NCBI RefSeq assembly: GCF_044704955.1
Contig: NC_091992.1
Coordinates: 111,910,001-111,974,000 of the forward strand
Source: Pristiophorus japonicus
Lineage: Eukaryota
Direction of reading: 5' to 3'
Length of the DNA: 64,000 bases
Made by a program: the position numbers and the translations under genes. Shown in pieces: positions 25,813 to 53,699 of this stretch. Below the pieces are notes generated by a model that was given only the letters and a program-made list of their open reading frames with translations, had not been told where the DNA came from and searched no databases. Each line of letters opens with the position of its first letter. The first letter of the stretch is position 1.

Positions 25813-25814
25813 AT

Positions 25815-26686: not shown

Positions 26687-26815
26687 GTAGGAATATATTT
26701 TTCTGTAAAATTAGTGAAGTACCTTCACTGAAGTGTGTGTGTGTGTGTGTGTGTGGCCATTCAGCCCTTCTAGCCTGCACCGCCATTCAACGAGTTCATG
26801 GCTGAACATGAAACT

Positions 26816-29797
26816 TCAGTACCCACTTCCTGCTTTCACGCCATACCCCTTGATCCCCCGAGTAGTAAGGACTTCATCTAACTCCCTTTTGAATATATTT
26901 AGTGAATTGGCCTCAACTACTTCCTGTGGTAGAGAATTCCACAGGTTCACCACTCTCTGGGTGAAGAAGTTTCTCCTTATCTCGGTCTTAAATGGCTTAC
27001 CCCTTATCCTTAGACTGTGACCCCTGGTTCTGGACTTCCCCAACATTGGGAACATTCTTCCTGCATCCAACCTGTCCAAACCCGTCAGAATTTTAAACGT
27101 TTCTATGAGGTCCCCTCTCACTCTTCTGAACTCCAGTGAATACAAGCCCAGTTGATTCAGTCTTTCTTGATAGGTCAGTCCCACCATCCCGGGAATCAGT
27201 CTGGTGAATCTTCGCTGCACTCCCTCAACAGCAAGTATGTCCTTCCTCAAGTTAGGAGACCAAAACTGTACACAATACTCCAGGTGTGGCCTCACCAAGG
27301 CCCTGTACAACTGTAGCAACACCTCCCTGCCCCTGTACTCAAATCCCCTCGCTATGAAGGCCAACATGCCATTTGCTTTCTTAACCGCCTGCTGTACCTG
27401 CATGCCAACCTTCAATGACTGATGTACCATGACACCCAGGTCTCGTTGCACCTTCCCTTTTCCTAATCTGTCACCATTCAGATAATAGTCTGTCTCTCTG
27501 TTTTTACCACCAAAGTGGATAACCTCACATTTATCCACATTATACTTCATCTGCCACGCATTTGCCCACTCACCTAACCTATCCAAGTCACTCTGTAGCC
27601 TCATAGCATCCTCCTCGCAGCTCACACTGCCACCCAACTTAGTGTCATCCGCAAATTTGGAGATACTACATTTAATCCCCTCGTCTAAATCATTAATGTA
27701 CAATGTAAACAGCTGGGGCCCCAGCACAGAACCCTGCGGTACCCCACTAGTCACTGCCTGCCATTCCGAAAAGTACCCATTTACTCCTACTCTTTGCTTC
27801 CTGTCTGACAACCAGTTCTCAATCCACGTCAGCACACTACCCCCAATCCCATGTGCTTTAACTTTGCACATTAATCTCCTGTGTGGGACCTTGTCGAAAG
27901 CCTTCTGAAAGTCCAAATATACCACATCAACTGGTACTCCTTTGTCCACTTTATTGGAAACATCCTCAAAAAATTCCAGAAGATTTGTCAAGCATGATCT
28001 CCCTTTTACAAATCCATGCTGACTTGGACCTATCATGTCACCATTTTCCAAATGCGCTGCTATGACATCCTTAATAATTGATTCCATCATTTTACCCACT
28101 ACTGAGGTCAGGCTGACCGGTCTATAATTCCCTGCTTTCTCTCTCCCTCCTTTTTTAAAAAGTGGGGTTACATTGGCTACCCTCCACTCGATAGGAACTG
28201 ATCCAGAGTCAATGGAATGTTGGAAAATGACTGTCAATGCATCCGCTATTTCCAAGGCCACCTCCTTAAGTACTCTGGGATGCAGTCCATCAGGCCCTGG
28301 GGATTTATCGGCCTTCAATCCCATCAATTTCCCCAACACAATTTCCCGACTAATAAAGATTTCCCTCAGTTCCTCCTCCTTAATAGACCCTCTGACCACT
28401 TTTATATCCGGAAGGTTGTTTGTGTCCTCCTTAGTGAATACTGAACCAAAGTACTTGTTCAATTGGTCTGCCATTTCTTTGTTCCCCGTTATGACTTCCC
28501 CTGATTCTGACTGCAGGGGACCTACGTTTGTCTTTACTAACCTCTTTCTCTTTACATACCTATAGAAACTTTTGCAATCCGCCTTAATGTTCCCTGCAAG
28601 CTTCTTCTCGTACTCCATTTTCCCTACCCTAATCAAACCCTTTGTCCTCCTCTGCTGAGTTCTAAATTTCTTCCAGTCCCCAGGTTCGCTGCTATTTCTG
28701 GCCAATTTGTATGCCACTTCCTTGGCTTTAATACTATCCCTGATTTCCCTAGATAGCCACGGTTGAGCCACCTTCCCTTTTTTATTTTTACGCCAGACAG
28801 GAATGTACAATTGTTGTAATTCATCCATGCGTTCTCTAAATGTCTGCCATTGCCCATCCACAGTCAACCCCTTAAGTATCATTAGCCAATCTATCTTAGC
28901 CAATTCATGCCTCATACCTTCAAAGTTACCCTTCTTTAAGTTCTGGACCATGGTCTCTGAATTAACTGTTTCATTCTCCATCCTAATGCAGAATTCCACC
29001 ATATTATGGTCACTCTTCCCCAAGGGGCCTCGCACAATGAGATTGCTAATTAATCCTCTCTCATTACACAACACCCAGTCTAAGATGGCCTCCCCCCTAG
29101 TTGGTTCCTCGACATATTGGTCTAGAAAACCATCCCTTATGCATTCCAGGAAATCCTCCTCCACCGTATTGCTTCCAGTTTGGCTAGCCCAATCTATGTG
29201 CATATTAAAGTCACCCATTATAACTGCTGCACCTTTATTGCATGCACTCCTAATTTCCTGTTTGATGCCCTCCCCAACATCACTACTACTGTTTGGAGGT
29301 CTGTACACAACTCCCACTAACGATTTTTGCCCTTTAGTGTTCTGCAGCTCTACCCATATAGATTCCACATCATCCAAGCTAATGTCTTTCCTAACTATTG
29401 CATTAATCTCCTCTTTAACCAGCAATGCTACCCCACCTCCTTTTCCTTTTATTCTATCCTTCCTGAATGTTGAATACCCCTGGATGTTGAGTTCCCAGCC
29501 CTGATCATCCTGGAGCCACGTCTCCGTAATCCCAATCACATCATATTTGTTAACATCTATTTGCACAATTAATTCATCCACCTTATTGCGGATACTCCTT
29601 GCATTAAGACACAAAGCCTTCAGGCTTGCTTTTTTAACACCCTTTGTCTTTTTAGAATTTTGCTGTACAGTGGCCCTTTTTGTTCTTTGCCTTGGGTTTC
29701 TCTGCCCTCCACTTTTCCTCATCTCCTTTCTGTCTTTTGCTTTTGCCTCCTTTTTGTCTCCCTCTGTCTCCCTGTATAGGTTCCCATCCCCCTGCAA
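26816..29797 (-). CDS. CR1 ORF2: APE endonuclease and reverse transcriptase
   Basis: 993-codon open frame. APE motifs (LNARS, ITETW, GDFN, SDH) and RT motifs (YRPVSLTS, VPQGSVLGP, FADD). The track start is TTG; the first ATG is at 29722. Confidence 0.96.
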   Translation of the reverse strand: MQGDGNLYRETEGDKKEAKAKDRKEMRKSGGQRNPRQRTKRATVQQNSKKTKGVKKASLKALCLNARSIRNKVDELIVQIDVNKYDVIGITETWLQDDQGWELNIQGYSTFRKDRIKGKGGGVALLVKEEINAIVRKDISLDDVESIWVELQNTKGQKSLVGVVYRPPNSSSDVGEGIKQEIRSACNKGAAVIMGDFNMHIDWASQTGSNTVEEDFLECIRDGFLDQYVEEPTRGEAILDWVLCNERGLISNLIVRGPLGKSDHNMVEFCIRMENETVNSETMVQNLKKGNFEGMRHELAKIDWLMILKGLTVDGQWQTFRERMDELQQLYIPVWRKNKKGKVAQPWLSREIRDSIKAKEVAYKLARNSSEPGDWKKFRTQQRRTKGLIRVGKMEYEKKLAGNIKADCKSFYRYVKRKRLVKTNVGPLQSESGEVITGNKEMADQLNKYFGSVFTKEDTNNLPDIKVVRGSIKEEELREIFISREIVLGKLMGLKADKSPGPDGLHPRVLKEVALEIADALTVIFQHSIDSGSVPIEWRVANVTPLFKKGGREKAGNYRPVSLTSVVGKMMESIIKDVIAAHLENGDMIGPSQHGFVKGRSCLTNLLEFFEDVSNKVDKGVPVDVVYLDFQKAFDKVPHRRLMCKVKAHGIGGSVLTWIENWLSDRKQRVGVNGYFSEWQAVTSGVPQGSVLGPQLFTLYINDLDEGIKCSISKFADDTKLGGSVSCEEDAMRLQSDLDRLGEWANAWQMKYNVDKCEVIHFGGKNRETDYYLNGDRLGKGKVQRDLGVMVHQSLKVGMQVQQAVKKANGMLAFIARGFEYRGREVLLQLYRALVRPHLEYCVQFWSPNLRKDILAVEGVQRRFTRLIPGMVGLTYQERLNQLGLYSLEFRRVRGDLIETFKILTGLDRLDAGRMFPMLGKSRTRGHSLRIRGKPFKTEIRRNFFTQRVVNLWNSLPQEVVEANSLNIFKRELDEVLTTRGIKGYGVKAGSGY

Positions 29798-29799
29798 TA

Positions 29800-30747
29800 T
29801 TAGTTTAACTCCTCCCCAACAGCACTAGCAAACACTCCCCCTAGGACATTGGTTCCGGACCTGCCCAGGTGCAGACCGTCCGGTTTGTACTGGTCCCACC
29901 TCCCCCAGAACCGGTTCCAATGCCCCAAGAATTTGAATCCCTCCCTGCTGCACCACTGCTCAAGCCATGTATTCATCTGCGCTATCCTGCGATTCCTACT
30001 CTGACTAGCACGTGGCACTGGTAGCAATCCCGAGATTACTACTTTTGAGGTCCTACTTTTTAATTTAGCTCCTAGCTCCTTAAATTCTTTTCGTAGGACC
30101 TCATCCCTTTTTTTACCTATGTCGTTGGTACCAATGTGCACCACGACAACTGGCTGTTCTCCCTCCCATTTCAGAATGTCCTGCACCCGCTCCGAGACAT
30201 CCTTGACCCTTGCACCAGGGAGGCAACATACCATCCTGGAGTCTTGGTTGCGTCCGCAGAAACGCCTATCTATTCCCCTCACCATCGAATCCCCTATCAC
30301 TATCGCGCTCCCACTCTTTTTCCTGCCCTCCTTTGCAGCAGAGCCACCTACGGTGCCATGAACTTGGCTGCTGCTGCCCTCCCCTGATGAGTCATCCTCC
30401 CCAACAGTACTCAAAGCAGTGTATCTGTTTTGCAGGGGGATGACCACAGGGGACTCCTGCACTATCTTTCTTGCACTGCTCTTCCTGTTGGTCTTCCATT
30501 CCCTATCTGGCTGTGGACCCTTCTCCTGCGGTAAGACCAACTCACTACACGTGATACTCACGTCATTCTCAGCATCGTGGATGCTCCAGAGTGAATCCAC
30601 CTTCAGCTCCAATTCCGCAACGCGGACCGTCAAGAGCTCGAGGCGGATACACTTCCCACACACGTAGTCGTCAGGGACACCGGAAGTGTCCCCGAGTTCC
30701 CACATGGTACAGGAGGAGCATATCACATGACCGAGCTCTCCTGCCAT
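29800..30747 (-). CDS. CR1 ORF1: zinc finger, coiled coil and SGNH esterase-like domain
   Basis: CSSC...CGKC, a leucine heptad, and GDS, GTND and DGLH blocks of the SGNH fold. Confidence 0.93.
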   Translation of the reverse strand: MAGELGHVICSSCTMWELGDTSGVPDDYVCGKCIRLELLTVRVAELELKVDSLWSIHDAENDVSITCSELVLPQEKGPQPDREWKTNRKSSARKIVQESPVVIPLQNRYTALSTVGEDDSSGEGSSSQVHGTVGGSAAKEGRKKSGSAIVIGDSMVRGIDRRFCGRNQDSRMVCCLPGARVKDVSERVQDILKWEGEQPVVVVHIGTNDIGKKRDEVLRKEFKELGAKLKSRTSKVVISGLLPVPRASQSRNRRIAQMNTWLEQWCSREGFKFLGHWNRFWGRWDQYKPDGLHLGRSGTNVLGGVFASAVGEELN

Positions 30748-30924
30748 GTCTTAACCTTAGATACCCTTAAATTGGTAATAACAATGTTATAGTTCACTTA
30801 CTGATATAAAAAATAAAAGAAAAGCTACTCACCAATCACCAGCCAATCACTTACCCCATTGGCTGTGACGTCACTTTTTGATTACTTTCTACTTCTATTT
30901 TGCTTTCTCTCCCACTGTAGCTGC

Positions 30925-31120
30925 CTTTTGATAGGCTGCTCCCGCGTCTCACCAACTGCCGCTGGCTCTCGATCTCCCGCTGGGCTTTTGATAGGCCGCT
31001 CCCCTCTCACCAAGTGCCGCTGGCTCTCGATCTCCCGCTGGGCTTTTGATAGGTCACTCCCCTCTCACCAACTGCTGCTGGCTCTCGATCTCCCGCTGGG
31101 CTTTTGACAGGTCGCTCCCG
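30925..31120. repeat. Tandem repeat of about 60 bp (about 3.3 copies) in the CR1 5' UTR
   Basis: The unit cttttgatagg...ctcaccaactgccgctggctctcgatctcccgctggg is repeated. Confidence 0.9.
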
Positions 31121-32043
31121 TGTGTGTGTGTGTCCCAATGGAAGGCTAAATGTTCTTTCTACTTCATTGTGGATGGTGCATCAGCACTGTAGAATGTACG
31201 GAGAATAAATATATAAGCTTTTGAATTCACAGAATGCTCATTTATTCAGTACATAAATGTCAAGGACAAGAGCCAGCAGCTTCTACTAGCCTGACTGATT
31301 GTTTGGCTATTTATCACTGTTTCTAATATGTTTTATAGTTATTTCCCACTAGTCTTAAATTTATGTCTGCTATCTTAATCTGAAGCCTTTAAATTCTAAT
31401 TCTAATTTCGAGCTATCACAAATGCCTCATTTCAATTACCACAAGGACAGAACCTGTAACATAATTCAGCTGTGTTAAATTACACCGCAGTCATCTCGAT
31501 CAGTGACATCCATTCTGTTTGTTGCATTTAATTTGAAATGAGATAGCAAAAGAGAAATTATGACAACATTCCCCCCCCCCCCCCCCAAATATCAGTTGGA
31601 AACATAAAAGTTAGGAAAGGGGTAAAAAGGAGAAATGTGAGTGAAATGCAGAATCTTAAAATGGGAAAAATGAACAAAAGCAAGGATTTAAAAACGAGAG
31701 TAAATGCTGCAAGGTGAAATAAACCAGGAAATACAGTAAGGAAAATAAATCTGCAAAATTAAATGATTGGATTCCAGGAGTGCAGATTCTGGTGTGCAAA
31801 TGTTTCACCAGGAGTAATTTTGCAGTTACAACTAATCTCCATGCTCTTCTATCTGCATGTATGTTTCTAAAAAAATTTAAATCGCTTCAATTGTTGCTTT
31901 GTTTTAATCAGGTTGGTCGATTTTAAGTGAAGTCAACATTCATGTTTTTTTTTTAAAAAGTGTTCCCACAACACTGATTCCCTCGGCTCACTGATTTTTT
32001 TTTCTCTCTCATGATGATGTTGCCGTTCCAAGTTCAGGAGGGG

Positions 32044-35000
32044 TGTAGTGTATGAAATGATACAATGAACTCCATACTGTGAGCCAGTGACTAGGGTAAC
32101 CTGGTCCGTCTTTAATGGTTTCTAGAAGTGAGGATACAAAGGTGAAGTTCAGGTTATATTCTGGGCCCAGCACGAGTGTACCTATGATCCTAGGATCTCC
32201 GATGGTAGTGCTCTCTGGTGGTGGGCAGACCTTATGTACATACATTACATCATTTCCCCCACCCAGTTCATGGCACAAGTCCATATTACAAGTTCAGACG
32301 GTCCGGAGCCCTTCGCTCCATGGTTGACCGTCTCAGTACAATCCCAGTGCTTTCTGAGTTTCACGACTTGGGGCTGTGCGTTGACCACAGTGGGTTCTTC
32401 TGATGGCTGGACCTAAGTTGGTTGGTCGTCTAAGCTCGCGGTGTCTTCTTCCAACTGTTCTGGTTTGTCAGTGTGCCTTAGCTTAATTTGATCAATGTGT
32501 TTCCTGCACATCTATCCATTCCTGAGCTTAACCATATACACCCGGTTACCCTCTTATCCGTAACATTGCCCGGGAACCACTTCGGTCCTTGACCATGGTT
32601 AAGTACTTACACTGGGTCATTTACAGATATATCGCGTGACACTGCGGCGCAGTCGTGATACCACTGCTGGGTTAACGTCAGGTTTCAGCATAATCGTTAA
32701 GGTCAGGAAGGACTAGAGAGAGCCTGGTTTTCAATAGTTCCACAGGAAGGACCCCAGTGAACATGTGTGGCCTTGTCCCGTAACTGAGCAGTATGTGTGA
32801 CAGGCATGTCTGCAAGGAACCGTGAGTTACACGTTTCAGGCGCTGCTTGATGGTTGTGAACTGCCTGCTCCACTTGACCATTGGACGCGGGTTTGAACGT
32901 GGCTGACCTCACGTGTTTTATGCCATTGCGTTTCATGAACTCTTGAAACTCAGGCTCGTGAAATATGGTCCGTTGTCACTGACAACGATGTCTGGCAGAC
33001 CATGTGTGGCAAACATGGCTCTCAGGTTCTCAATGGTGGCAGTGGAAGTGCTGGATAACATGATCACACAATCTATCCATCTGGAGTATGCATCCACCAC
33101 CACAAAATATTTTTCCGAGGAAGGGGCCTGCAAAGTCGATGTGGATTCTAGACCATGGTTTGGATGGCCATGACCACAGACTGAGCAGAGCTTCCTTTGG
33201 GGCATTGCTTAACTGCATTGAAGTGCTGCACTGATACACGCATGACTCTAAGTTCGAGTCAATGTCAGGCCACCAAACATGGGACCTGGTGATGGCATTC
33301 ATCATGACAATACCAGGATGCGTACTATGTAACTCCCATACAAATCTCACCCTGCATTTCTTGGGCATTACAACATGATTACCCCACAGTAAACAGTCGA
33401 ACTGGATGGAAAGCTCATCTTTGCGACGGCTGTACGGTTTGCATTCATCACCCATTTCCATGGGGATAGTCGACCAGTCCCTGTTAAGAACACAATGTTT
33501 TACAACCGATAGGGTCGGATCCTGGTTGGTCCAGGTCTTACCTTGTTGAGCAGTGACGGGCGACCCTTCGCTCTCAAAGGCATCCATGACCATGAGTAGC
33601 TCTGCTGGCATTGGCGTTTCCACCTCCGGTGTGGGCAACGGTAACCAGCTCAATGCATCAGCGCAGTTGTCGGTGCCTGGTCTATGGCGAATGACATAAT
33701 CATAGGCAGATAATGTCAGCGCCTACCTCTGGATGCGGGACGACGCGTTGGTATTGATACCTTTTATGTTCCGAGAACAATGATATAAACGGCTTGTGAT
33801 CGGTTTCCAGCTTGAAATGAAGCCCAAACAGGTACTAGTGCATTTTTTTTTTAAACCCCATAAACACATGCTAAAGCCTTTTTCTCTACCATGGCGTAGG
33901 CTCTTTCCGCCTTGGACAGGCTTTGAGACGCGTATGCAACTGGTTGTAGTTTGCCTGACTCATTGGCTTGCTGGAGTACGCAGCCGACCTCCTAGGACGA
34001 CGCATCACAGGTCAAAACTAGATGCTTGCATGGGTCATACAGTACCAGTAGCTTGTAGGAACACAACAGATTTCTAGCCTTCTCAAAGGCTCTGTCTTGA
34101 AGTTCACCCCACACCCAGTCGTCTCCTTGCCTGAGCAGCTTATGCAAAGGCACTAATATTGTGCTCAATTTGGGTAAGAAGTTACCGAAGTAGTTGAGAA
34201 GACCCAGGAACAAATGCAGCTCCGTCACATTCTGGGGCCTGGGCGCATTTTTGATAGAAACAGAGAAACATAGAAAATAGGTGCAGTAGGCCATTCGGCC
34301 TTTCGAGCCTGCACCGCCATTCAATGAGTTCATGGCTGAACATGCAACTTCAGTACCCCATTCCTGCTTTCTCGCCATACCCCTTGATCCCCCTAGTAGT
34401 AAGGACTACATCTAACTCCTTTTTGAATATATTTAGTGAATTGGCCTCAACAACTTTCTGTGGTAGAGAATTCCACAGGTTCACCACTCTCTGGGTGAAG
34501 AAGTTTCTCATCTCGGTCCTAAATGGCTTACCCCTTATCCTTGGACTGTGATCCCTGGTTCTGGACTTCCCCAACATTGGGAACATTCTTCCTGCATCTA
34601 ACCTGTCTAAACCCTTCAGAATTTTAAACGTTTCTGAGATCCCCTCTCATTCTTCTGAACTCCAGTGAATACAAGCCAAGTTGATCCAGTCTTTCTTGAT
34701 ATGTCAGTCCTGCCATCCTGAATCAGTCTGGTGAACCTTCGCTGCACTCCCTCAATAGCAAGAACATCCTTCCTCAAGTTAGGAGACCAAAACTGTACAC
34801 AATACTCCAGGTGTGGCCTCACCAAGGCCCTGTACAACTGTAGTAACACCTCCCTGTCCCTGTACTCAAATCCCCTTGCTATGAAGGCCAACATGCCATT
34901 TGCTTTCTTAACCGCCTGCTGCACCTGAATGCCAACCTTCAATGACTGATGTACCATGACACCCAGGTCTCGTTGCACCACCCCTTTTCCTGTCACCATT

Positions 35001-38000
35001 CAGATAATAGTCTGTGTCTCTGTTTTTACCACCAAATTGGATAACCTCACATTTATCCACATTATACTTCATCTGCCATGCATTTGCCCACTCACCTAAC
35101 CTATCCAAGTCACTCTGCAGCCTCATAGCATCCTCCTCGCAGCTCACACTGCCACCCAACTTAGTGTCATCCGCAAATTTGGAGATACTACATTTAATCC
35201 CCTTGTCTAAATCATTAATGTACAATGTAAACAGCTGCGGCCCCAGCACAGAACCTTGCGGTACCCCACTAGTCACTGCCTGCCATTCTGAAAATACCAT
35301 TTACTCCTACTCTTTGCTTCCTGTCTGACAACCAGTTCTCAATCCATGTCAGCACACTACCCCAATCCCATGTGCTTTAACTTTGCACACTAATCTCTTG
35401 TGTAGGGCCTTGTCAAAAGCCTTCTGGAAGTCCAAATACACCACATCAACTGGTTCTCCCTTGTCCACTCTACTGGAAACATCCTCACAAAATTCCAGAA
35501 GATTTGTCAAGCATGATTTCCCTTTCACAAATCCATGCTGACTTGGACCTATCATGTCACCTCTTTCCAAATGCGCTGCTATGACATCCTTAATAATTGA
35601 TTCCATCATTTTACTCACTACCGATGTCAGGCTGACCGGTCTATAATTCCCTGTTTTCTCTCTCCCTCCTTTTTTAAAAAGTGGGGTTACATTGGCTACC
35701 CTCCACTCCATAGGAACTGATCCAGAGTCTATGGAATGTTGTAAAATGACTGTCAATGCATCTGCTATTTGCAAGGCCACCTCCTTAATTACTCTGGGAT
35801 GCAGACCATCAGGCCCTGGGGATTTATTGGCCTTCAATCCCATCAATTTCCCCAGCACAATTTCCCAACTAATAAGGATTTCCCTCAGTTCCTCCTTCTT
35901 ACTAGACCCTCTGACCCCTTTTATATCTGGAAGGTTGTTTGTGTCCTCCTTAGTGAATACTGAACCAAAGTACTTGTTCAATTGGTCTGCCATTTCTTTG
36001 TTCCTAGTTATGACTTCCCCTGATTATGACTGCAGGGGACCTACGTTTGTCTTTACTAACCTTTTTCTGTTTACTTATCAATAGAAGCTTTTGCAGTCCA
36101 TTTTAATGTTCCCTGCAAGCTTCCTCTCGTACTCTATTTTCCCTGCCCTAATCAAACCCTTTGTCCTCCTCTGAGTTCTAAATTTCTCCCAGTCCCCGGG
36201 TTCACTGCTATTTCTGGCCAATTTGTATGCCACTTCCTTGGCTTTAATACTATCCCTGATTTCCCTTGATAGCCACGGTTGAGCCTTTTAAAAAATTTTC
36301 ACCTCTGTTTTCGCATCTGTAGGGCTGATTCCATCTGCAGCAACCTTTCGTCCAAGGAAGTTGACCTCTGGTGCCATGAAAACGCACTTCGAACGTTTCA
36401 GCCTGAGTCCCACTTTGTCCAGATGACACAGAACCTCTTCCAGATTGTTCAAGTGCTTGGCGGTGTCACGACCTGTGACTAGGATATTGTCCTGGAATAC
36501 CACAGTCCTGGGGACAGATTTCAATAGGCTCTCCATGTTTCTCTGAAATATGGCTGCCACTGAATGAATGCCAAAAGGGCACCTGTTGTAAATAAACAGT
36601 CCTTTGTGCGTGTTGATGCACATAAGTTTCTTTGATGATTCAACCAGTTCCTGTGTCATGTAGGCTGACGTTCGATCCAATTTGGTGAACGATTTCCCCC
36701 CCCCCCATTAGCGTTATAAACAGGTCATCAGCTTTCGGTAGCGGGTACTCATCTTGTTTCGAAACTTGGTTGATCATGACCTTGTAGTCTCCACAAATCC
36801 TGACTGTGCCATCACTCTTTGGGCCAGCCCCATTGTTCCGGTGTTAATCATTAAATTCAACCGGTGAGATGACCCCCTCACATTGTAGCCTGTCCAATTC
36901 GAGCTTGACCTTTTCTCTCATCATGTGTGGAACCACCCTGGCTTTGTGATGGATGGGCCTTGCGTCTGGGCCTAGGTGAATCTGCACCTTAGCTCCCTTG
37001 AAGTTGCCAATTCCCCATTCAAGCAGTGAGGGAAATTTGCTCAGCACATGAGCACACAAACCATCATCTGCTGATGACAAAGCTTTGGTATCGTACCATT
37101 TCCATTTTATTTTCTCGAGCCAACTCCTGCCGAGTAACGATGGGCCGTTGCCTGGGATAATCCATAATGGTAAATCATGAACCGCTCCCTCGTATGACAC
37201 TCTTACTGCTGCACTACCGATCACTGGTATGAGCTCTTTGGTGTAGGTACACAACTTCGCATTTATCGGACTCCACTTGGGTCTCTCTGCCTTGGTCTCC
37301 CACAGCTTTTCGAAAGTTCTCTGGCTCATTATCGATTGACTCACACCCGTGTCTAATTCCACGGATACCGGCACGCCATTTAATTTTACCTCTATTATCG
37401 GTTGGCTCTTTGTTAGGAATGCCTACGCTATACACTTCCTCCTCGGAGCTCTCAAATGTCTCGGGCCGCATCGCCAGATCCCCGCTGAACTGATCATCAT
37501 CCACGTGGTGTGTCGCAGCTCACTTGCTCCACTGCAGACACGTCCGCTGAAGATGCCCCGTCTTCGCACACCCTCTGCATACATAACTGCCTGAAGCGGC
37601 ACTGATGGGGTCGGTGATCGCCCCCGCAACGCCAACACATTGAGCTCGGATTTGCGCCCGATGGCGGGCTTTGAGCGGCTCCCGGTCTTGCAGATGCAGT
37701 CGAGTAGGCCCTGCCATATGCAGCTTTGCTGGCCGTCTATATAATTTTGTACACAGTACTTGCCATGGAGTTCCTGTTTTGTCACGATATCTGCTTTGTG
37801 CTTTTCTGCCTGGACATGCAAGCCTGGGCAATGGTGATGTCCTTGCTGAGGTCCAGTGTCTCCGCAGCCAGTAGCTTACTTAAGATCGCCTCGTGGTTGA
37901 CCCCGATCACGAAAAAGTCACGCAGCATGTCTTCCAACGCAGGCCCAAATTTGCAAGGCCCTGTAAGACATCTCGGGTCGGCAACAAATGCCGTTACGTC

Positions 38001-38493
38001 CTGGCCTTCTGGATGAACGTGCGTATAAAAGCGATATCTGGATATGAGAATTCTTTCCATAGCTTTAAGGTGTTCCTGAACTAGAGCACACAGTTCTTTG
38101 TAATCCTTTTCTGTAGGAAGAGTGGGTGAGAGCAGATTCTTGAGTGCATAAATCGTGGGGCCACAGACGGTGAGAACTGTTCTGCACTTCTCTGCATCCT
38201 CATCTTTGTTTAGGTCGTTTGCTACGAAATACTGGTCAAGACGATCCATGAAATCTCCCCAATCCTCTCCCTCCTTGAATCTCTAAGAATTCCAACAGTA
38301 CTCGATTGTGCTGTGCTCGCCATACTTTTGCGTGGGTTCGTATTTGCCTCGTTGCCAGTTGTAGTGTATGAAATGATACAATGAACTCCGTACTGTGAGC
38401 CAGTGACTAGGTGTAACCTGGTCAGTCTTGAATGGCTACCAGTTCAGGTTATATACCGGGCCCAGCCCTGGTGGTGGGCAGACCATATGTACA
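32044..38493 (-). mobile_element. Decayed Ty3/Gypsy LTR retrotransposon (gag-PR-RT-RH-IN)
   Basis: LTRs at 32044-32249 and 38360-38493, flanked by direct repeat AGGGG. PBS TGGCAACGAGG (tRNA-Ser-like) and PPT gggggaaatga. Fragmented gag (37782..38249), protease LDTG (36844..37374), RT (36288..36680), RNase H (LTCDAS) and integrase (33030..33653, VSDNG). Confidence 0.93.
34258..36301 (-). mobile_element. 5'-truncated CR1 nested in Gypsy pol
   Basis: RT ORF pieces 35349..35993, 34908..35300, 34616..34999 and 34350..34586, very similar to the CR1 at 26755. Excision restores Gypsy DAKTE-A-IKNAPRP. Confidence 0.93.
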
Positions 38494-39249
38494 AGGGGGA
38501 AGAGACCGATTTCTGTCATCCTACACCCGAAAAGTTCTATGCTAGCCTCCACAAGCTGTGTTGTTACTGGGGGTGGGGGAATGGAGAAAACAAGAAATCC
38601 TCTTGTGGGTGATGAGGGAAACGTGGAGAAATCCTGTTTATAGGGTGGGGGGATATGGAAAATCCAGTGTTGGAGGCAAAGAAGCAGACACTTATTTGGA
38701 GCGATAAGGGGAAAATGATGGAGACGGAGACTGGCCCTATGGGAGAAGGTCATTTTATTTTAAAACCTTCCATGCTGCCATGTCTGTTTTGTGTGCGGAT
38801 GGGTGCTGAATCATAGCTGGATGTGGGGTCTGCAGGAATTGGGCAGAGGGCCTCCAGTTGGTCTGCCTGAGTCTGAGGGCACCGCCAATAGTGCAACACA
38901 GCCAGGAATTGAAGCTACGACAAGTGCAGGGCTTAGGATAGAAGTTCTTCCAGTACTTGCAGTTTAGAATCTCTGTCTTGAAGAACTCCAATACTAACCA
39001 GGTGCAAGAGTGTTAAAAGATGTGTGTATTTGGGGGTCTATAAGGCTTCAGATGTCGTACGTTGGATACTATCTTGCTGCATGCCCTAGCCTTTTTTTTT
39101 TAAGTATAAATCCGTAAAGGAATTCCTTTGACTAAATTAGTAAGGATTATGTGTGAGGCATACAGAACGTGGGAGACAAATGAGAAATTTCCCTTACAGA
39201 TTTTTTTTTTTACTAAGCTTTGCAAATTTATTTAGCCAATGCATAGTGT

Positions 39250-39590
39250 CTGGTAGCATAGTGGTGTTCCTGGACTAGTAATTCAGAGGCCTGGACTAAT
39301 GATCTGGGGACTGAGTTCAAATCCCACCACGGCAGCTGAGGAATTTAATTTTTTTTTAAATATCTGGAATAGAAAGCTAGTAATGACCATGAAACTACCG
39401 GATTGTCCTAAAAGTCCATCTGGTTCACTAAATGTCCTATAGGGAAGGAAATCTTCTGCCCTTACTTGGCCTATATATGACGCTAGACCCACAGCAATGT
39501 GGTTGACTCTTAACTGCCACTTTCTCAAGGGCAACTAGGGATGGGAAATAAATGCTGGCCTTGCCCACATCCCATGAACTAATAAAAAAA
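39250..39590 (+). mobile_element. tRNA-derived SINE, second family
   Basis: tggtagcatagtgg A-box, gagttcaaatccc B-box and an A-rich end. Homologous to 7435-7840. Confidence 0.72.
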
Positions 39591-40871
39591 AAGTTATCTC
39601 CTCGGATATAACTGGCTGCAAAGTTTCCTGTCCAATTAAGTTGAACTTTTTAAAGCCGCTTAATGTTTGGTATTGTTGAGCGACCAGAGAATCAATGCAA
39701 TCACTAATTTTAACATGGAATATTGATCCAAATACGCATTTATTTTAGAATTCATTTTGATAAATATACAATTTTACCTCTGGGATAGTGCACCAGTAAC
39801 CAAATGTAAAATTGGTCTATTAAGAGATAAGACCATTGCATCTGCTCTGAATTTACAGGCAGGGATAGCTAAGAAATGAATTATTAAATAATTGCTTCCT
39901 ACTGATCTTGCATTGAGTTTTTCAGTACACGTGCTTTGAAATGGATTTGCCCATCAATATTGGGAAATGATTAGTTGGTGTAGGTACGCGCAGACATATG
40001 CTGGCCATATTACACAGAGTACTTTGAACACAAGATAAATAACCCAAAAGATTTGTGGTAAATACACAAGCGAGACTTGCAGGTTGAATACGCATGTTTA
40101 GTCACACTTTTTATTCTGGTTTATAATGAGCTACGTTCAAGTAATCGAGATCAGAATTGATGGCAAACTTTCATCAGTGGTCATTGGCTGCACCGCTTCC
40201 AAATTTAAAAAAATTAATTCACGGGATGTGGGCATTGCTACCAAGGCCAATATTTATAGGACAATAAGGTGGTGGTGAACCACTGTCTTGGTATAACTGA
40301 GTAGCTTCCTCGGCCATTTCAGAGGGTAATTAAGAGTCAATCACCATCAGTGTTTAATGCTAGTTGGTTGATGGTGGGGTTACTGATTCATCTCATAGCT
40401 TTTCAGTTTTTAAAGCGAATCACTTCCTGATACAGCTGTAATCCTACCCATAGAGTGGGGAGGTCATTGAGGACTCTGGACACATTCAAATCGCTTTTGG
40501 AGAAGGATTTGTCTTCTGCCCTCTTCCATCCATCCCAGATTAGCAATCTGAGTTTGGCGAAATGTTGAAATTACATGTGATTGTTTTGAAGTGGAAAAAA
40601 TAAAAATGCCTTAACTAAATTTTTTTGATTAAGCTGTGCTCATACATAATGTAGTTTGGAAAATATGGTACATTTGAGTTCCTCTTAATTTATTACATTG
40701 GAATGAGTAAAACATGATTGATTCAGTTTAAATAAACACTGTTCCATAGACCTACACATAAGGGGTGGGGGAATCCAACAGGTAAACAAATATCCTTTCC
40801 TGAATTAAATGGAACTTTATTGCATAACTCAAACTTGTGTGTTTCGTTTCTCTCCCCCTCCATTTCTTCAA

Positions 40872-40934
40872 TGTAGAGAGAAGGGCCACTGTACCAACAA
40901 GTGTCCGACAATAAACAAACAACATGTGGACTAG
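40872..40934 (+). pseudogene. CPSF4L: Vestigial CPSF4-type zinc-knuckle terminal exon; possibly the current CPSF4L last exon via a shifted acceptor at 40877
   Basis: Reads CREKGHCTNKCPTINKQHVD*, compared with CPSF4 CGEKGHYANRC. Preceded by a long pyrimidine tract ending caa instead of cag. AATAAA at 40910 and about 41063. Confidence 0.65.
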
Positions 40935-43248
40935 GGCAACTGTGTAAATGGGACTGAAATCCAGGACTCTGGACCTAATGAGCAGAAGGACTTTTCTTTT
41001 TTTTTGAACTTTTGTAATATTGAATAATCTATCCAGATTGTATTCTTCTTGTCCTTAAGCAAAATAAATAAAAGACAGATTAAAACTGTTCTATTGGAAA
41101 CTAGATAATTGCATTGGATCATGGTTCCTAGTTTTCTTTCCTTCCCTCGAAGGTTATGCACTTGTTGCTGGGGTAGTTTCATGATTGGATCCTCATCCAA
41201 GTGGCCATTATCCATGTGTGAACCCTTACAATGTTGCCAGACTATTCAACAGGCAGGGGCATCCAAATTGATCCTCATCTGATACCTACACAGATGCACT
41301 TAGGTGGTGATCAGGGGCAACCTCCCTGGCCAATTATTCACTCCCCTAACCTGGCAATAATTAGGCCAATTCTAGTGCCCCTCTGACCTTCCCCCAGATC
41401 AGTAGGTTAAAACTTCATTGTATTGCTCCATATGGCTTTGATGCACACTGGATAAATTTTCAGGGCCATTTAAGGAGCTATGATTTGTATTTTTGAATCC
41501 CATATGTCTTGCAGAATCTACATAACCCCATAAATACTACATTGAGAGCAAAATCACTTGAGAAAAATGTAATTTGAAAAGATTGTATGATCCTTCTGCA
41601 TAGGTTTACAATGTATGCTTGAAATAATGTTGTGTGTTTCAGAACTGCAACAGAGGAGTATAATATTTCAATACAGTGCTGCCCCAAAATGATTTGTGGG
41701 TTCAACTTTATTTGTTAAACCAATACCTTACTTCAGGACATTTTCCTAGATGTTGTTTTACTTACTTTCAATGGCAACTGTTCCATCTCTCCAAAAAGAC
41801 AGATTTTTAGAACAGCAGGTGCGAGAAACGTTTCAATGGGTACAGTCTAAATGACCTGACACAATAGGCTAAGTGACTGGAACAGACTTTCTCAAATTAC
41901 TGATCTAACTGACTGCCCATCATGTGAGGTGGTCTCATTTCTCCTTCTGGACACTGATTCCAACACCTGTATGGTAGTACTAGGTTTCAGTGAAATGTGA
42001 TTTTACTGCTCCACAGGGAATAGCTCCCATTTAATAATGCTTGAGCAGAAGTCATTGCTATAGTTATATCCTAGCTTGCAGCCAATGTGGCTGTGTATTG
42101 GAAGATCATACAGGCAGATAACTGTTTCTTTAAGCTGGTAGTATTGAAAGATTATCCTAACTTAACAGCTGTTTTAATTAAATACATGGCTTTAACACCA
42201 GCTGCATTTGAAGACTTCTCTGTACTAGTGGATAAATATTTGATGCTGGCTGGTGTCAAATAGCAGCAGTTAACATGGTCAACAGTCAATGAAAGTTAGT
42301 TGGCACAATTACATACATGCCATCAGGAAAGGTCATTCCAACCTGTGACCTGGCCAAATGTCACTTCCAACACACTACTTCTTGTGCTCAATCCAACTGG
42401 CACTAAACTTGTCTTATGTGGCACTATTAGTTACATTCCTCATAACTGCTGAGAAAATTACACTAGAATAGATCCAAGGAGTTTATGGGCCTCAGACAAT
42501 GGTGTATCTAGTTTGTATTGGTTGTTCCCATTGTAAAATGGTCCTCATTCACAGTTACACCAGTTCTGTTCTTGAACAATGGAACTCCAGTGTATGGGGT
42601 CTAGTACAAGAAACCTAGATATAATTCACATTTAAACATTAGATACTCTGAGCACAAGAGGTGACCATTTACCCATCATAGTATTGTGGTAAAGGAATGC
42701 TAGACCTGGGAGTAACTAACACATGACCCACAGGTGCTTATTTCAAACCTGTAGAACTCCTGCTGGTTCCTATCCTGTGTGCAGTCGATTTAGACTTCCC
42801 AAGTTTGGAGGAGTGAAAAAGGCTACTCCCTGCTTACCAGGGCTCCAATTCATTATTGCATAAACTTGTGTCTGAACAAGTATTTTTTGTGGATTATTAG
42901 TAAAATGACATCCACCCACCATGAGAAAAATTCAGACCTTGGAGTCAGTTGCACTTCCAGCTATAATGTACATGTCTCCTACAATAGCACAGTGCATCAT
43001 AGGATTAGTGCATTGTTGGGAAATAAAGCTGAGAGAACTACTGCAATATAGATTCAAGAACTGCTCCATTTAAACTGCATCAATAGCCAAACTTAAAAAG
43101 TAATCCCTGATTAGTGATTTCACCTCTGATATGAACTGGGGTCTATAGTGCCTGTGGGGTTAAGTTCACCATTAATTGCAACCAATTTTTTTTTTACTTT
43201 CTCAATCAGTGATTCAGATTCTCCTCTGGCCACATGGTACCTTTGGAT

Positions 43249-44415
43249 ATAGAAACATAGAAACATAGAAAATAGGTGCAGGAGTAGGCCATTCGGCCCT
43301 TCTAGCCTGCACCGCCATTCAATGAGTTCATGGCTGAACATTCAACTTCAGTACCCCATTCCTGCTTTCTCGCCATACCCCTTGATCCCCCTAGCAGTAA
43401 GGACCTCATCTAACTCCTTTTTGAATATATTTAGTGAATTGGCCTCAACAACTTTCTGTGGTAGAGAATTCCACAGGTTCACCACTCTCTGGGTGAAGAA
43501 GTTCCTCCGCATCTCGGTCCTAAATGGCTTACCCCTTATCCTTAGACTGTGACCCCTGGTTCTGGACTTCCCCAACATTGGGAACATTCTTCCTGCATCC
43601 AACCTGTCTAACCCCGTCAGAATTTTATATGTTTCTATGAGGTCCCCTCTCATTCTTCTGAACTCCAGTGAATACAAGCCCAGTTGATCCAGTCTTTCTT
43701 GATAGGTCAGTCCCGCCATCCCGGGAATCAGTCTGGTGAACCTTCGCTGCACTCCCTCAATAGCAAGAATGTCCTTCCTCAGGTTAGGAGACCAAAACTG
43801 TACACAATACTCCAGGTGTGGCCTCACCAATGCCCTGTACAACTGTAGCAACACCTCCCTGCCCCTGTACTCAAATCCCCTTGCTATGAAGGCCAACATG
43901 CCATTTGCTTTCTTAACCGCCTGCTGCACCTGCATGCCAACCTTCAATGACTGATGTACCATGACACCCAGGTCTCTTTGCACCTCCCCTTTTCCTAATC
44001 TGTCACCATTCAGATAATAGTCTGTCTCTCTGTTTTTACCACCAAAGTGGATAACCTCACATTTATCCACATTATACTTCATCTGCCATGCATTTGCCCA
44101 CTCACCTAACCTATCCAAGTCGCTCTGCAGCCTCACAGCATCCTCCTCGCAGCTCACACTGCCACCCAACTTAGTGTCATCCGCAAATTTGGAGATACTA
44201 CATTTAATCCCCTCATCTAAATCATTAATGTACAGTGTAAACAGCTGGGGCCCCAGCACAGAACCTTGCGGTACCCCACTAGTCACTGCCTGCCATTCTG
44301 AAAAGTACCCATTTACTCCTACTCTTTGCTTCCTGTCTGACAACCAGTTCTCAATCCATGTCAGTACACTACCCCCAATCCCATGTGCTCTAACTTTGCA
44401 CATCAATCTCTTGTG
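43249..44415 (-). mobile_element. Young 5'-truncated CR1 LINE
   Basis: Uninterrupted 352-aa RT C-terminal ORF (43348..44406) and a (TTCTATGT)n tail. Confidence 0.95.
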
Positions 44416-45384
44416 TCTGTTTACATTTTAAGCCAGTCTTTTGCTATGTCTCATTCCATTATGCTATGGAGGTAAAAGCATCAGGTAGCAGAGTTTTTAA
44501 ACACTTCAAATTCCAATTGTACAAGTCCATAGTTCCACCAGCAATGTGCTGGCATTGCCACAAAACTAATATGCTCTACTGGCTGAAGATAAAAGGTGAA
44601 CAGTAAGGCATCTCCAGCATTATGTATACATAGTAGCAAAATTCCCAATATTAGACATAGCCCAGAACCTAAAAAATTTTTAAAATTACATTTCCAAGTA
44701 TATTTCTACAAGTAAATAATAAAAACTTCATTCTAGCTTAATACTGTCGAGCCCCTAGTACAAATTTGATGAAAGCGCAAGACAATTTTCCCCAACATGT
44801 TTCAAAATTAAATCAATTCCATAGTGCATTAGAGCTATTTCTTTTTAACAGAACTCTCTGCTGGTCAAGTTTTCTTCCATATGAAGTAAATGATATTGCC
44901 TACATAATGCTGAATTTTTCTAGACAAAAAAACCCTTGAACAAGATTGTGATGGGTGGTAGAATCCCAAAAAGCTTAGAAATGAATTGATTGTGCTTGTT
45001 CATTTATTTAATTAACATTTACAGGCCAGATTGTTTTACTAGTTTTGAATGTCACATTTATTTTTATGAAAGATTTAATAATTTATTTTTAATTCTGTTC
45101 TTGCCTGCATTAGTCAGGTAAGTGCATTTTCAAATCACTTTACATAAATATAATCCATCTCCAAAAATTGACATTTACAAATAAGATCTTCATTACAGCT
45201 TGTAAATTTACTCAAGAAATTGTTTTCATAATGAAGCAACTTTGGTACACATATTTTCCTGGTCCTCCCCTACACAACAAAGGGACAATAATTAAATGTT
45301 TGATGTTTTCTTGTTGAGGTAATGCTTCCATTGTTCTTGACTTATGAGTGGAGTGAATCAGAAAAACATGATAGTCTTGGGGTT

Positions 45385-47938: not shown

Positions 47939-48566
47939 ATCCTTTCTAACAATGCAATGCATGTATCAAACATAATACCCATAATTCTTAGACAGTGTAA
48001 TGGCAACTCGGGAGTTCACAATAACATTACATGAAACAGCTTTTACATTTTTACAAATCAAATAAAATGTGTAAGTGTTTACCCAATACCTATACAAAAA
48101 TTGATCCAATACAGTTGTACATTTCCAGGCTACCTGATTAACCCTAAGAGAGTTTGGAAAGTAGACATCTGTGGATTGTAGGAAGCAGCCGGAAGTATTT
48201 CCTTGAAGGAAAAGGTATAGCATTGCTTGCAGTTATAGCGGAACAGAATAAACCAATCCAACATGGTCCAATTACTTACACAGTAAGCACTTGTTACATT
48301 GCTAAGATGAGCCGCTGTCAGGTTATAGAGATTACATCTTTCCATAGTAAGGAAATGCAGTATAAAAAGAGATACATTACAAGATACTGTGGCAAAGTAT
48401 CATAAAATTCAATAATTTTGTATTTTAAATATTTTAGAATTGCATTTTTCCCCAAAGCAAATATGGATTGAAATGTGTGTTTAAAGGCATGTTACAGCAG
48501 GCCAATCAGCAAATGCACAAATATGGCAGAACTGACATAACATTCTAAGTATACAGCTGATTGTAC

Positions 48567-50073
48567 CTTTTGTATTTTCACTCCGAGGGGCAGATAGCCT
48601 TTTGGGTATTTGCAACTGTGCAGTTTGCTCAGGAAGCATACACAACCCAATGCTGTGGTATCCTGGATACAATTCAGGAAACCACTCCATTCCCACCCCA
48701 GCTTTCCTGCAAACACTGGGATGAAGTTCTTTAATCCTTTCATTCAAATATTGTGTTTTTGTGGAGCTTGTTGATAAAAACATCTCTTTGTTCCAACACT
48801 TTTCTTTTTGTGACAAATGCAAATATTCAGACTGTGTGACACCATTTATGTTTAAGTCACTTGGTTCTATTTTCTTCACAGCCAGATAACCAGTATGTGG
48901 ATTTCCTTCATATTTATTTAAGTCCTTCACTCGCATAGAAGCCGTAATTATGCTGCAAAAATGATTGCTAGTAGATGAATCACAGACAGAAGTGCTATGA
49001 CTAGTCTCTAAAATGTCAGCTATATCACCATCTTCCTTCACACTTGTGTTCACTTTCAAAATAAACTCCTGCCTTGCACTGGAAGTTGTTGTTCTACACA
49101 AATTCTCTTTAATGTGATGCCACACACTAGTTTTGATGTTGTTTATTGAACTCTGTTCATATATTAGTTTATTTGAGACTCTTCCTTCTGTGACTTCATT
49201 CTGGTTACTTTGACATCTTAGGTCAACCTTAGGAACCACATTCTCTAGTCTTATGGAGTGAAGTGAATTTGATCTATCGGCACCAGATGACTGAGATGCG
49301 ATGACATGGGACTGCAGATCCAAAACAGCTGTCTCCTTCTCAAATTCTGGTCTAGTCTGAATATGTTCTAAGTTAAGAATTGACTTCACTTTAGGAAAAT
49401 ATCTATTTTTTGATAACAGGTCAGTACTTCCTTTTTCATTCAGTGGGGGTCTCAGTGAACTGTCTTCAATATTTTCTTGTTTTTTCTTTATAGAGTTATT
49501 ACTTACAATCTTTTGAGTGCTCTTCACTTTTGTTCTGGTAGTGCCTTTGAACTTTACATCTACTTTGCCTTGGTCTTGTTTTAAAGAATGTTCACTTGGC
49601 TTTGATTTTATGAACATTTCTTTTGTTGCCTCTTTAAGTCGTCCTTTAGTTGTTCTACTAACAGACTGTTGACATTTTTCTCCAATTGGCTTTCTGTTGT
49701 TCATCGAAGTTCCTTGATTTGACTGTGGTTCATTAATACACCTACTCCAAATAGTTTGTTCTGAAGTACACGATTCATTCACCATACCTATTAAATTCTT
49801 CTTTTTTTCTGTTGCTGCTGCTTTTTCTTTCTGTGTTAATGTCTTTGCTGAGTTTGTTTTAACTTTTATCTTCTTGTTGGGAGATGATGCAGTTCTCACT
49901 AATTTGCCATTCAATTCTAGCTGTGGAATTGCAATTGGTACCTCTGTCTTTTTGGAATTAGATTTACTGTTCACATTTCTGTTCATCTTACAGTGAGGAA
50001 GATGAGCTTTTAGCCGCTTAAAAGCTTTACCACAAAATGGACATACTTGCATTCCCGGTGAAGCATTCTCCAT
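48567..50073 (-). CDS. C17orf80: C17orf80/MTNAP1 (mitochondrial nucleoid-associated protein 1) large coding exon
   Basis: N-terminal MQVCPFCGKAFKRLKAHLPHCK and C-proximal GMEWFPELYPGY are family motifs. Donor AAAG|gtacaa at 48567. Probable acceptor cactttcag| at 50108. Confidence 0.92.
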
Positions 50074-50831
50074 TTTTATATTGGAGAGAAAAACAGAATA
50101 GTATTAAACTGAAAGTGTGAAGTACACAAAATAGTCTTGATTAGTTGAAACTGTTAGCATTTTTGGCATCTGTAACAATACCATGTTCAAAGACAAGAGT
50201 ATTCCGCAAATCAGTGGCAGAGGTCATAATATTGTAATATTATTGCTGTAACAGTAAGAGATTGTCCTTTTCCTTGGAGTTTTCATTAATATATTGTAAG
50301 TTTCACAAAATGACCTGTTCATCTAATTTCTTCATCACAATATGATTGTTTTATGATCAGCTCCTCTCCTGAAGATTAAATGTTTTCCATTAAAACAAGA
50401 AGGTATATCAAGTTTAAGACAACGACTTAATTGATAACTAGGTTATAGTTCAAAGCAATAACATCATTCTTATTCAGACTGTTTCACTTTACATACCATG
50501 ACTAAGACCTCATGTGGAAACAGAAAAATCAGAACAGCACCAGTTTTTGGAATAGTTTTTCAAACACGAATCATGTCTATTAAATTACCCCTTTAAGTAG
50601 TTCCACTCAGTTATTTTTCTCATTATTTGCAGACACAATATTGGCTGGTCCAGATCATATATTCAAATTTGCCATAAGGCTGTGTTTGTTTATTTTGCAC
50701 ATGACTATTTTAGAAGCCATTTTTCTTGGAATATTATTCCATTTCAGTCTTCAAATGCTGCACAGGGTGGAGAAAATCTTTACCCAAGACAGGATTTATA
50801 AAAATGAAAATTGAAAGCAATATCTTCATTA

Positions 50832-51971: not shown

Positions 51972-52805
51972 TAGAAACATAAAAAATAGGAGTAGGCCAT
52001 TCGGCCCTTCGAGCCTGCACCACCATTCAATATAATCCTGGCTGATCATGCAGCTTCAGTACCCCATTCCTGCTTTCTCTCATTACCCCCTGATCCCTTT
52101 AGCCATAAGGGCCACATCTAACTCCCTTTTGAATATATCTAACGAACCGTCCCCAACAACTATCTGTGGTAGAGAATTCCACAGGTTCACAATTCTCTGA
52201 GTGAAGAAGTTTCTCCTCATCTCGGTCCTAGATGGCTTACCCCTTACCCTTAGACTGTTACCCCTGGCTCTGGACTTCCCCAACATCGGGAACATTCTTC
52301 CTACATCTAACCTATCCAATCCTGTCAGAATTTTATATGTTTCTATGAGATTCCCCCTCATCCTTCTAAACTCCAGTGAATACAGGCCCAGTCGATCCAG
52401 TCTTTCTTCATATGTCAGTCCTGTCATCCTGGGAATCAGTCTGGTGAACCTTCGCTGTACTCCCTCAATAGCAAGAACGTCCTTCCTCAGATTAGCAGAC
52501 CAAAACTGAACACAATATTCCAGGTGAGGCCTCACTAAGGCCCTGTACAACTGCAGTAAGACCGCCCTGCTCCTATACTCAAATCCCCCAGCTATGAAGG
52601 CCAACATACCATTTGCCTTCTTCACTGCCTGCTGTACCTGCATGGCAACCTTCAATGACTGATGTACCATGACACCCAGGTCTCGTTGCACCTCCCCTTT
52701 TCCTAATCTGTCACCATTCAGATAATATTCTGTCTTCCTGTTTTTGCCCTCAAAGTGGATAAACTCATATTTATCCACATTATACTGCATATCTGCCATG
52801 CATCT
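51972..52805 (-). mobile_element. 5'-truncated CR1 nested in a - strand SINE (SINE parts about 51900-51970 and 52806-52890)
   Basis: RT C-terminus in ORF 52083..52886, whose first residues come from the SINE head. Confidence 0.88.
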
Positions 52806-52973
52806 GCCGAGGTGTTTGTGCTCAAGTCCCTGGAGTGGCGACTTGAACCCACAACCTTCTGACTCAGAGGTGAGGATGCTGCCCACTGAGCTACTTGACC
52901 GATAAACTAAAACGTCTAGAAAAACGTATTTTGAATTATTGTAATCGATATTTCATTGCAATTTCTGACTCAC

Positions 52974-53175
52974 GTGCCGCATCTTCTCTTAAACCTCTCT
53001 TTAATCGCCAGGATGCGTTTATTTGCCTTGCTTCGTTTCTTTTTGGAATCAACGAAAAGTGTCTGAAAGGTTTCTCTTGGGCAAACAAGGCCATAGAGCG
53101 GCGGCGGCGGCGGCGGCCACCCGGTCCGGCAGCGTGGGCAGCGGAGCCTTCCAGAAACATCGCTCTTTGACGCCG
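52974..53175 (-). other. C17orf80: Probable first (5' UTR) exon of C17orf80
   Basis: Consensus donor GCAC|gtgagtca at the CpG island edge. Start site unknown. Contains a (CCG)7 repeat. Confidence 0.6.
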
Positions 53176-53682: not shown

Positions 53683-53699
53683 ATGTTATCAGACGGCAG
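53683..53699 (+). CDS. FAM104A: FAM104A/VCF1 coding exon 1
   Basis: ATG TTA TCA GAC GGC AG|gtgagt = MLSDG(R). Phase 2 joins exon 2 to give RKRRR. Confidence 0.8.

Follow-up and report, generated by a model that had tools for sequence, protein, structure and literature searches.

A vestigial zinc-knuckle exon and a probably knuckle-less product of CPSF4L in the shark Pristiophorus japonicus

The accessible parts of the published work describe the CCHC zinc knuckle of CPSF30 as a domain that enhances RNA binding (PMC4215182), that aids the binding of polyU, and that is absent in plants and yeast (PMC3287031). According to the available part of PMC5760199, the core CPSF module assembles without the knuckle, cross-linking to AAUAAA RNA drops when the knuckle is deleted, and the role of the domain is called unresolved. 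The residues of the fourth and fifth CCCH fingers (ZF4 and ZF5) that contact Fip1 are named in the corresponding part of PMC7706699. Mouse Cpsf4l is highly expressed in testis and knockout males are fertile, according to the accessible part of PMC13253961. A 2024 review of CPSF (PMC11331416) does not mention CPSF4L, and among the literature matches listed, a coverage outside which most subscription papers fall, none dealt with the evolution of the CPSF4L knuckle.

The distribution of the knuckle was counted in automatic gene models at the protein level, and many of the knuckle-less models, among them three of 166 aa, may be truncated annotation. On this basis a full knuckle is found in at least one CPSF4L model from nine of 20 other cartilaginous-fish species (32 records from sharks and rays, no chimaera), while only truncated or knuckle-less models are found in the other 11. 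Of 29 CPSF4L-type records picked by hand from coelacanth, ray-finned fishes, amphibians, turtles, a crocodilian, tuatara and ratite birds, 28 contain the full CCHC. With Pfam zf-CCHC the cartilaginous-fish model P0216 scored 23.2 bits, above the cut-off of 20.8, and P0085 slightly below it (19.8 bits). None of 13 mammal-type records has a knuckle (two short fragments excluded; the named taxa are Peromyscus, Myotis and Camelus). An earlier note on this DNA, made from the letters alone, had stated that mammalian CPSF4L lacks the knuckle and proposed that the ancestral protein had one; the retrieved mammalian models and the nine cartilaginous-fish species, respectively, agree with this. CPSF4L is as old as the jawed vertebrates and began with a knuckle, and the mammalian form is thus derived.

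The window, i.e. the whole stretch of DNA analysed here, comprises 64,000 nt (C16:111910001-111974000) of the 5.9-Gb genome of P. japonicus, and positions below refer to it. The features of its CPSF4L gene are collected in Table 1. We consider it probable that the last exon of this gene is vestigial and that the tail has been broken three times, in exons 6, 7 and 8, while the core is intact and likely encodes a knuckle-less protein.

Table 1. Features of the CPSF4L gene, its last introns and its 3' end, in window positions.
Feature	Position	Strand	Remarks
CPSF4L exon 1, coding from ATG	10277-10379	+	Agrees with public model P0002
Exon 2	13636-13686	+	ZF1, first half
Exon 3	18037-18189	+	ZF1 end, ZF2 and ZF3 start; private changes R58W, K64Q, K77Q
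Exon 4	22072-22167	+	ZF3 and ZF4
Exon 5	25128-25221	+	ZF4 end and ZF5; end falls within the codon of the last ZF5 ligand, His166
High-copy non-coding repeat, putatively MITE-like	25818-26386		GC-rich; in-frame AG...GTAAGT cryptic exon candidate 25988-26084 ending C-K-K
Exon 6	26643-26686	+	44 nt long (relatives: 43 nt); first base completes His166
AAA run with one extra A	26663-26665	+	+1 frameshift; not shared by relatives, also seen in own-sample contig X4
Young LINE of nearly full length, within a TG microsatellite	26754-31133	-	Open 1001-aa endonuclease/reverse-transcriptase frame
Broken LTR retrotransposon	32044-38493	-	Reverse transcriptase, integrase Zn domain, gag-type knuckle 37538-37579, 5-bp target duplication, nested LINE 34254-36285
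Last exon of public model P0002	32954-33058	+	Antisense inside the LTR element
Old exon 8 acceptor	40852-40871	+	Pyrimidine tract retained, final AG now AA; relatives have G at 40871 (3/3)
Vestigial exon 8, coding part	40872-40934	+	Encodes the second knuckle half (CCHC); Tyr>Cys and Ala>Thr changes, gap of 4 codons relative to catshark
TAG, candidate fallback acceptor	40874-40876	+	Exon start 40877; most likely part of the ancestral Arg codon
AATAAA	40910-40915	+	Within the former T-I-N codons
Two overlapping AATAAA	41063-41072	+	T at 41067 in 3/3 relatives would destroy both

In a tree where the gene was represented by exons 1-5 and all other rows were full length, so that branch lengths were left unused, it falls inside the cartilaginous-fish CPSF4L clade (support 100/100), among the sharks and separate from the Pristis record, and together with 28 of 28 CPSF4L rows on one side of a 98/94 branch. 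It is thereby placed in the CPSF4L orthologue group, and a distinct canonical CPSF4 is located on C15 at about 164.734-164.752 Mb, where all eight exons are kept with an intact cag/TGT. The public model P0002 is named CPSF4-like, and its match to exon 3 is 100%. Downstream and convergent with CPSF4L on the minus strand is a 530-aa frame (48484-50073, in a stretch of 48481-50103) which begins C-x2-C...H-x3-C and which may be C17orf80; in human, CPSF4L has C17orf80 and CDC42EP4 as neighbours. Pfam gave no match to this frame, and its Atlas matches are unnamed and all below 0.9. Its promoter may lie in a GC-rich island at about 52900-54200. A BORG/CEP gene is found on C16, 2.1 Mb from CPSF4L. Upstream of the gene, tandem frameshifted repeats resembling C2H2 zinc fingers with HTGERPF linkers are present on the plus strand (2565-2860).

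Exons 1-5 (497 nt) contain neither a stop nor a frameshift, and the splice sites of exons 1-6 are all canonical. The five CCCH fingers are present, with Pfam zf-CCCH matched on P0002; 19 of 19 zinc ligands in these exons are retained, and His166 is formed at the exon 5/6 join. In the predicted protein the Fip1 contacts Y127, F131, H142, R144, Y151 and F155 are conserved, as H166 would be if exon 6 is joined, while R168 is replaced by Ser and differs in other sharks as well. The fingers predicted to bind AAUAAA, ZF2 and ZF3, appear largely conserved, K77Q being private to this shark. At the exon 2/3 join (13681-13692 and 18037-18041) P0002 reads K-G-K where a phase-conserved join would give K-A-K, and splicing may take place at a second donor located 6 nt further on.

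The core carries 10 private substitutions, five of them at conserved sites, including K77Q in finger 2. Relative-rate counts of the core against XP_067860604, the closest sequence retrieved, were 15:6, 16:5 and 12:7 with three outgroups (p 0.08, 0.03 and 0.36). Judged from these sequences, selection on the core looks relaxed, not clearly ended. Had it ended, the whole gene might be on its way to becoming a pseudogene, the tail lesions being the first visible damage and exons 1-5 being intact by chance or because the end of selection is recent. The faster evolution of the core, the substitutions at conserved sites, the fertility of mouse knockouts (PMC13253961, in its accessible part) and the 11 cartilaginous-fish species with only truncated or knuckle-less models would all fit such a fate. 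However, on the rough indel rate of the flanks 2.6-5.3 events are expected in 497 nt under neutrality, with a probability of 0.07-0.005 for the observed absence of any, and canonical splice sites, zinc ligands and Fip1 contacts have all been retained; we therefore regard a decaying pseudogene as unlikely.

The gene with an intact core ends in a damaged tail, and its most distal part is found 14,186 nt behind the exon 6 donor. The coding part of exon 8 translates as CREKGHCTNKCPTINKQHVD followed by a stop, and is preceded by CAA, not CAG. The tract before 40872 has pyrimidines at 14 of 15 positions and ends ...ttcttcaa/TGT at 40871/40872, in agreement with the strong tract and the CREKGHCTNKC-type reading first described for it. 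When the last exons of two shark CPSF4L models were compared with 25222-41500 by frameshift-aware alignment, the best scores (56 and 73) both fell at 40872; none of 100 shuffled queries reached either score, the shuffle maxima being 41 and 40. BLASTP against the catshark model P0203 gave 13 of 23 identical residues with one 4-residue gap (E 2e-5 for the pair). The stop of a basking-shark model matches the window DNA at exon 8, and the longer, frame-shifted tail of a horn-shark model matches beyond this stop in a different frame; the homology thus exists at the DNA level and is wider than the motif. All three knuckle ligands of the exon are retained, as is the pyrimidine tract. The segment is homologous to a functional exon found at the same place in relatives, and 40872-40934 is orthologous to the final exon of CPSF4L in sharks. 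The earlier note had taken it for a vestigial CPSF4L knuckle exon, and both the shark models and the colinear contigs of relatives described below bear this out.

Contigs of four runs were aligned to 40560-41130, one from the own sample (X1) and three from other organisms (X5, X6 and X8, from organisms B, C and D). The latter three span the whole stretch with about 570 nt of colinear flanks, and all have G40871, A40891 and G40893, that is, a CAG acceptor, Tyr and Ala. X1 shows no difference from the assembly at a depth of 9.3, but the assembly may have been built from this run. A40871 (AG>AA) is derived in this shark. Both the AA read at the expected AG and the intact cag/TGT that had been looked for in relatives are thus found. 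The downstream AG to which the note had pointed, 5 nt further on, is present at 40875-40876, but it is most likely not new: X5 and X6 have A at 40876, while X8 shows no difference at this position among the substitutions listed, and other shark CPSF4L models read C-R-E-K at the site. Since X8 has the AG beside an intact CAG and C-R-E-K is found in other sharks, this AG is most likely ancestral, as part of the old Arg codon.

The comparison of exon 8 drew on 40 of 66 substitutions and 12 of 46 indels. Among those 40 of 66 substitutions, 3 differences common to all three relatives fall in the 63 coding nt and 23 in the remaining 504 nt; with only 3 changes in the exon, these small numbers indicate that it has drifted at the flank rate. 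The loss of the knuckle is thus not obviously recent, and the description of the gene as caught losing its domain overstated recency.

Exon 6 aligns to three shark models only via a +1 frameshift (0 of 100 shuffles each in frameshift-aware alignment), and Trp occupies the register position in 20 of 21 matched models. At 26665 the contig of run X10 has one base fewer and X5 continues without the extra base, while the own-sample contig X4 (depth 4.2) retains it; X8 does not cover exon 6. The insertion is derived. Three further differences separate X4 from the assembly, and at one of these it has the base of the relative; it is therefore probably a second allele. Beside the exon 6 donor this contig, at the same depth, has a C>A change at 26684 and, behind 26691, an insertion of 7 bases. 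Exon 6 formerly ended in phase 0, as in CPSF4, which makes the phase 1 behind the 192-aa reading discussed below a by-product of the insertion. The phase 1 originally assigned to exon 6 thus holds for the assembly as read, but both the model alignment and the contigs indicate that it was created by the insertion.

In relatives exon 7 comprises 32 codons, ends C-F-K and carries the first cysteine of the knuckle. The earlier note had found no exon for this first half (VTCYK), and wider searches gave the same result. Neither tblastn and blastn with the exon of the paralog nor tblastn with 14 C-termini found it, and frameshift-aware alignment with four queries, and then with five (drawn from seven records, two of which had no usable exon end), gave nothing above shuffle level. 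With 18 windows of 12 residues the best two were matched by 2 of 40 shuffles, and neither had a donor; with nine queries on the approximately 3,350 nt that remain when the two large insertions are removed, the best was reached by 13 of 200 shuffles. The search covered the intron and 60 kb downstream, and a whole-genome search with one query and no positive control did not find the exon either. The end of a relative's contig after 26722 could not be placed in the window above shuffle level. Simulated copies of exon 7 decayed by 10, 15 and 20% gave median scores of 110, 87 and 65, as compared with the 23-34 observed, while at 25% decay or more about half of the copies were missed.

The 14-kb intron after exon 6 is mostly occupied by a young LINE and by a broken LTR retrotransposon with a nested LINE. 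As both insertions have target duplications or matching flanks, neither has visibly removed exon 7. The LINE has an additional upstream frame of 316 aa, and the family is considered young because its 5' part is found in many copies at 94-97% identity. The terminal repeats of the LTR element are unequal. Further truncated LINE copies are found at 1827-2302, 34254-36285, 43249-44416 and 51972-52808.

Three kinds of tail were computed for the predicted protein: 192 aa when exon 6 is joined to 40877, 198-205 aa via later AGs, and 219 aa by read-through of exon 6. The public model has 225 aa. Pfam found no zf-CCHC on P0002 or on the 20-aa exon 8 segment, and none of the AG junctions tried gave a complete CCHC knuckle. 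P0002 uses a donor at 26718 followed by a last exon antisense within the LTR element, and this public model is corrected here, its last exon being inside a retrotransposon. The join to 40877 had been proposed before, and the computation confirms its predicted product, with a stop (40912-40914) inside the AATAAA at 40910-40915. A 26686-40877 junction giving a 192-aa protein is possible from the sequence, although as one isoform of the gene we find it somewhat doubtful.

This join is central to the mechanism that the earlier note had put forward, in which AG>AA was the founding event, splicing shifted to a new AG and exon 8 went on working as the last exon of a 192-aa protein. The tract before the TAG has pyrimidines at 12 of 15 positions, the stop of the join adjoins an AATAAA, and the two further poly(A) signals at 41063-41072 look gained. 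These signals, together with the surviving knuckle ligands and pyrimidine tract, could mean that exon 8 still serves as a 3' end, out of frame. The AG is, however, most likely ancestral, as X8 indicates, the 192-aa frame depends wholly on the insertion in exon 6, exon 7 is independently missing, the three lesions may have arisen in any order, and P0002 ends elsewhere. A shift of this kind is improbable as the cause of the loss, and the claim that the knuckle was lost in this way was not upheld. Each of the lesions, such as the frameshift in exon 6 or the absence of exon 7, is by itself sufficient to remove the knuckle. With three separate lesions in the tail, an ordinary lineage-specific loss of the domain is likelier than a single splice-site switch.

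In such an ordinary loss, the first lesion, whichever of the three it was, would have removed the knuckle, and the rest of the tail would then have drifted neutrally while the intron filled with transposons. Exon 6 is likely to stay spliced, and its acceptor would persist, since the codon of His166, the last ligand of finger 5, needs the first base of this exon. A short arbitrary tail is predicted at the end of the protein, for a total length of 192 aa if the TAG is used, 219 aa by read-through or 225 aa as in the public model. Fingers 1-5 would keep the contacts to CPSF160, AAUAAA and Fip1, and the extra RNA binding of the knuckle would be lost, as in Yth1 and mammalian CPSF4L; the canonical CPSF4 on C15 would cover the essential function.

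That the lesions are artefacts of the assembly or of one haplotype, the real gene or the other allele being intact, is very unlikely. In favour of it, each point lesion is a single-A change next to a run of A, the data come from one individual, and rare variants drop out of contigs. Against this, the own-sample contigs have both the AA (X1) and the extra A (X4), although the assembly may derive from these runs; X4, probably the second allele, still has the extra A; and exon 8 contains missense changes and a gap as well, with no second copy found in the genome. An assembly error hiding a CAG, the possibility raised in the earlier note, is likewise at odds with the AA of X1, within the same reservation about its source.

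The repeat at 25818-26386 has 5902 candidate copies, of which 40 were scored, and copies are about 77-79% identical to one another. In five of six other aligned copies a 5' splice donor of consensus strength is found, and new exons may readily arise from the family. The candidate cryptic exon in it (97 nt, in frame) could in principle rebuild the knuckle, as splicing from it to 40872 would give a complete C-x2-C-x4-H-x4-C. It is in frame after exon 5, keeps His166, ends C-K-K in phase 0 and has a strong donor; the AG of its acceptor is found in none of 6 other aligned copies. However, the donor is a feature of the repeat family and thus no sign of selection, and the rebuilt knuckle needs the AA acceptor, the real AG sites yielding no complete knuckle. 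Splicing at AA acceptors is very rare, and we give this possibility hardly any credence. That exon 8 is a chance motif or the gag knuckle of a retroelement, such as the one in the LTR element 3.3 kb upstream, has a negligible probability, given that it lacks similarity to that knuckle (E 9.7), that 40780-41100 has a single match in the whole genome assembly, that its flanks are colinear over 570 nt in three relatives, and that it matches CPSF4L through the stop; a gag origin, which the earlier note had asked to be checked, is thereby ruled out.

In the gene models the knuckle is missing elsewhere too. None of four records from two species of bamboo sharks (Chiloscyllium) has a knuckle, and in two isoform models the out-of-frame tail would fit a knuckle at 10 of 10 residues (matched by none of 200 shuffles), indicating that both knuckle exons are still present there; the models point to an early stop codon in exon 7, ahead of intact knuckle codons. 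Exon 7 of the horn shark looks frameshifted and compensated, and two catsharks seem, from their models, to bypass exon 7 via an internal acceptor with the knuckle kept (P0124, P0203-P0207, P0212 and P0214). We are evenly divided on whether the CPSF4L knuckle behaves as a switchable module that disappeared independently, through different lesions, in this shark, bamboo sharks, mammals and, probably, certain rays and birds, with the frame apparently rescued in catsharks and the horn shark. If so, the jawed vertebrates would constitute a natural knuckle-plus/knuckle-minus series of a gonad-enriched CPSF30 paralog for testing the part of the knuckle in poly(A) site choice, with natural pairs for the very domain whose role is called unresolved in the accessible part of PMC5760199. 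Dispensable paralogs are known to lose domains and to retain a decaying exon, and yeast and plants have forms of CPSF30 without a knuckle.

Compared with known systems, the closest are the CPSF4L proteins of other cartilaginous fishes (XP_067860604.1, Cetorhinus XP_078426711.1 and Heterodontus XP_067914747.1), which belong to the same clade and share the sequences of exons 6 and 8 and the five CCCH fingers. They keep exon 7 and the full CCHC, whereas this shark has a frameshifted exon 6, no exon 7 that could be found and an AA acceptor. Canonical CPSF4/CPSF30 shares the five fingers, the exon plan, the zinc ligands and most of the Fip1 contacts with this CPSF4L. It is, however, highly conserved and has the knuckle, while CPSF4L is the faster paralog (E95, N107 and R168 differ, and K77Q is found here). 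Mammalian CPSF4L is knuckle-less like the gene of this shark, but the mammal-type model P0259 ends in a remnant of exon 7 where this shark instead keeps the exon 8 half, and the mammalian loss is independent of the one described here. Yeast Yth1, finally, is a functional CPSF30 homologue without a knuckle, as the accessible parts of PMC5760199 and PMC3287031 describe it, and resembles the predicted product in this respect; Yth1 is the sole and essential copy in yeast, whereas the present gene is a vertebrate paralog with a vestigial exon.
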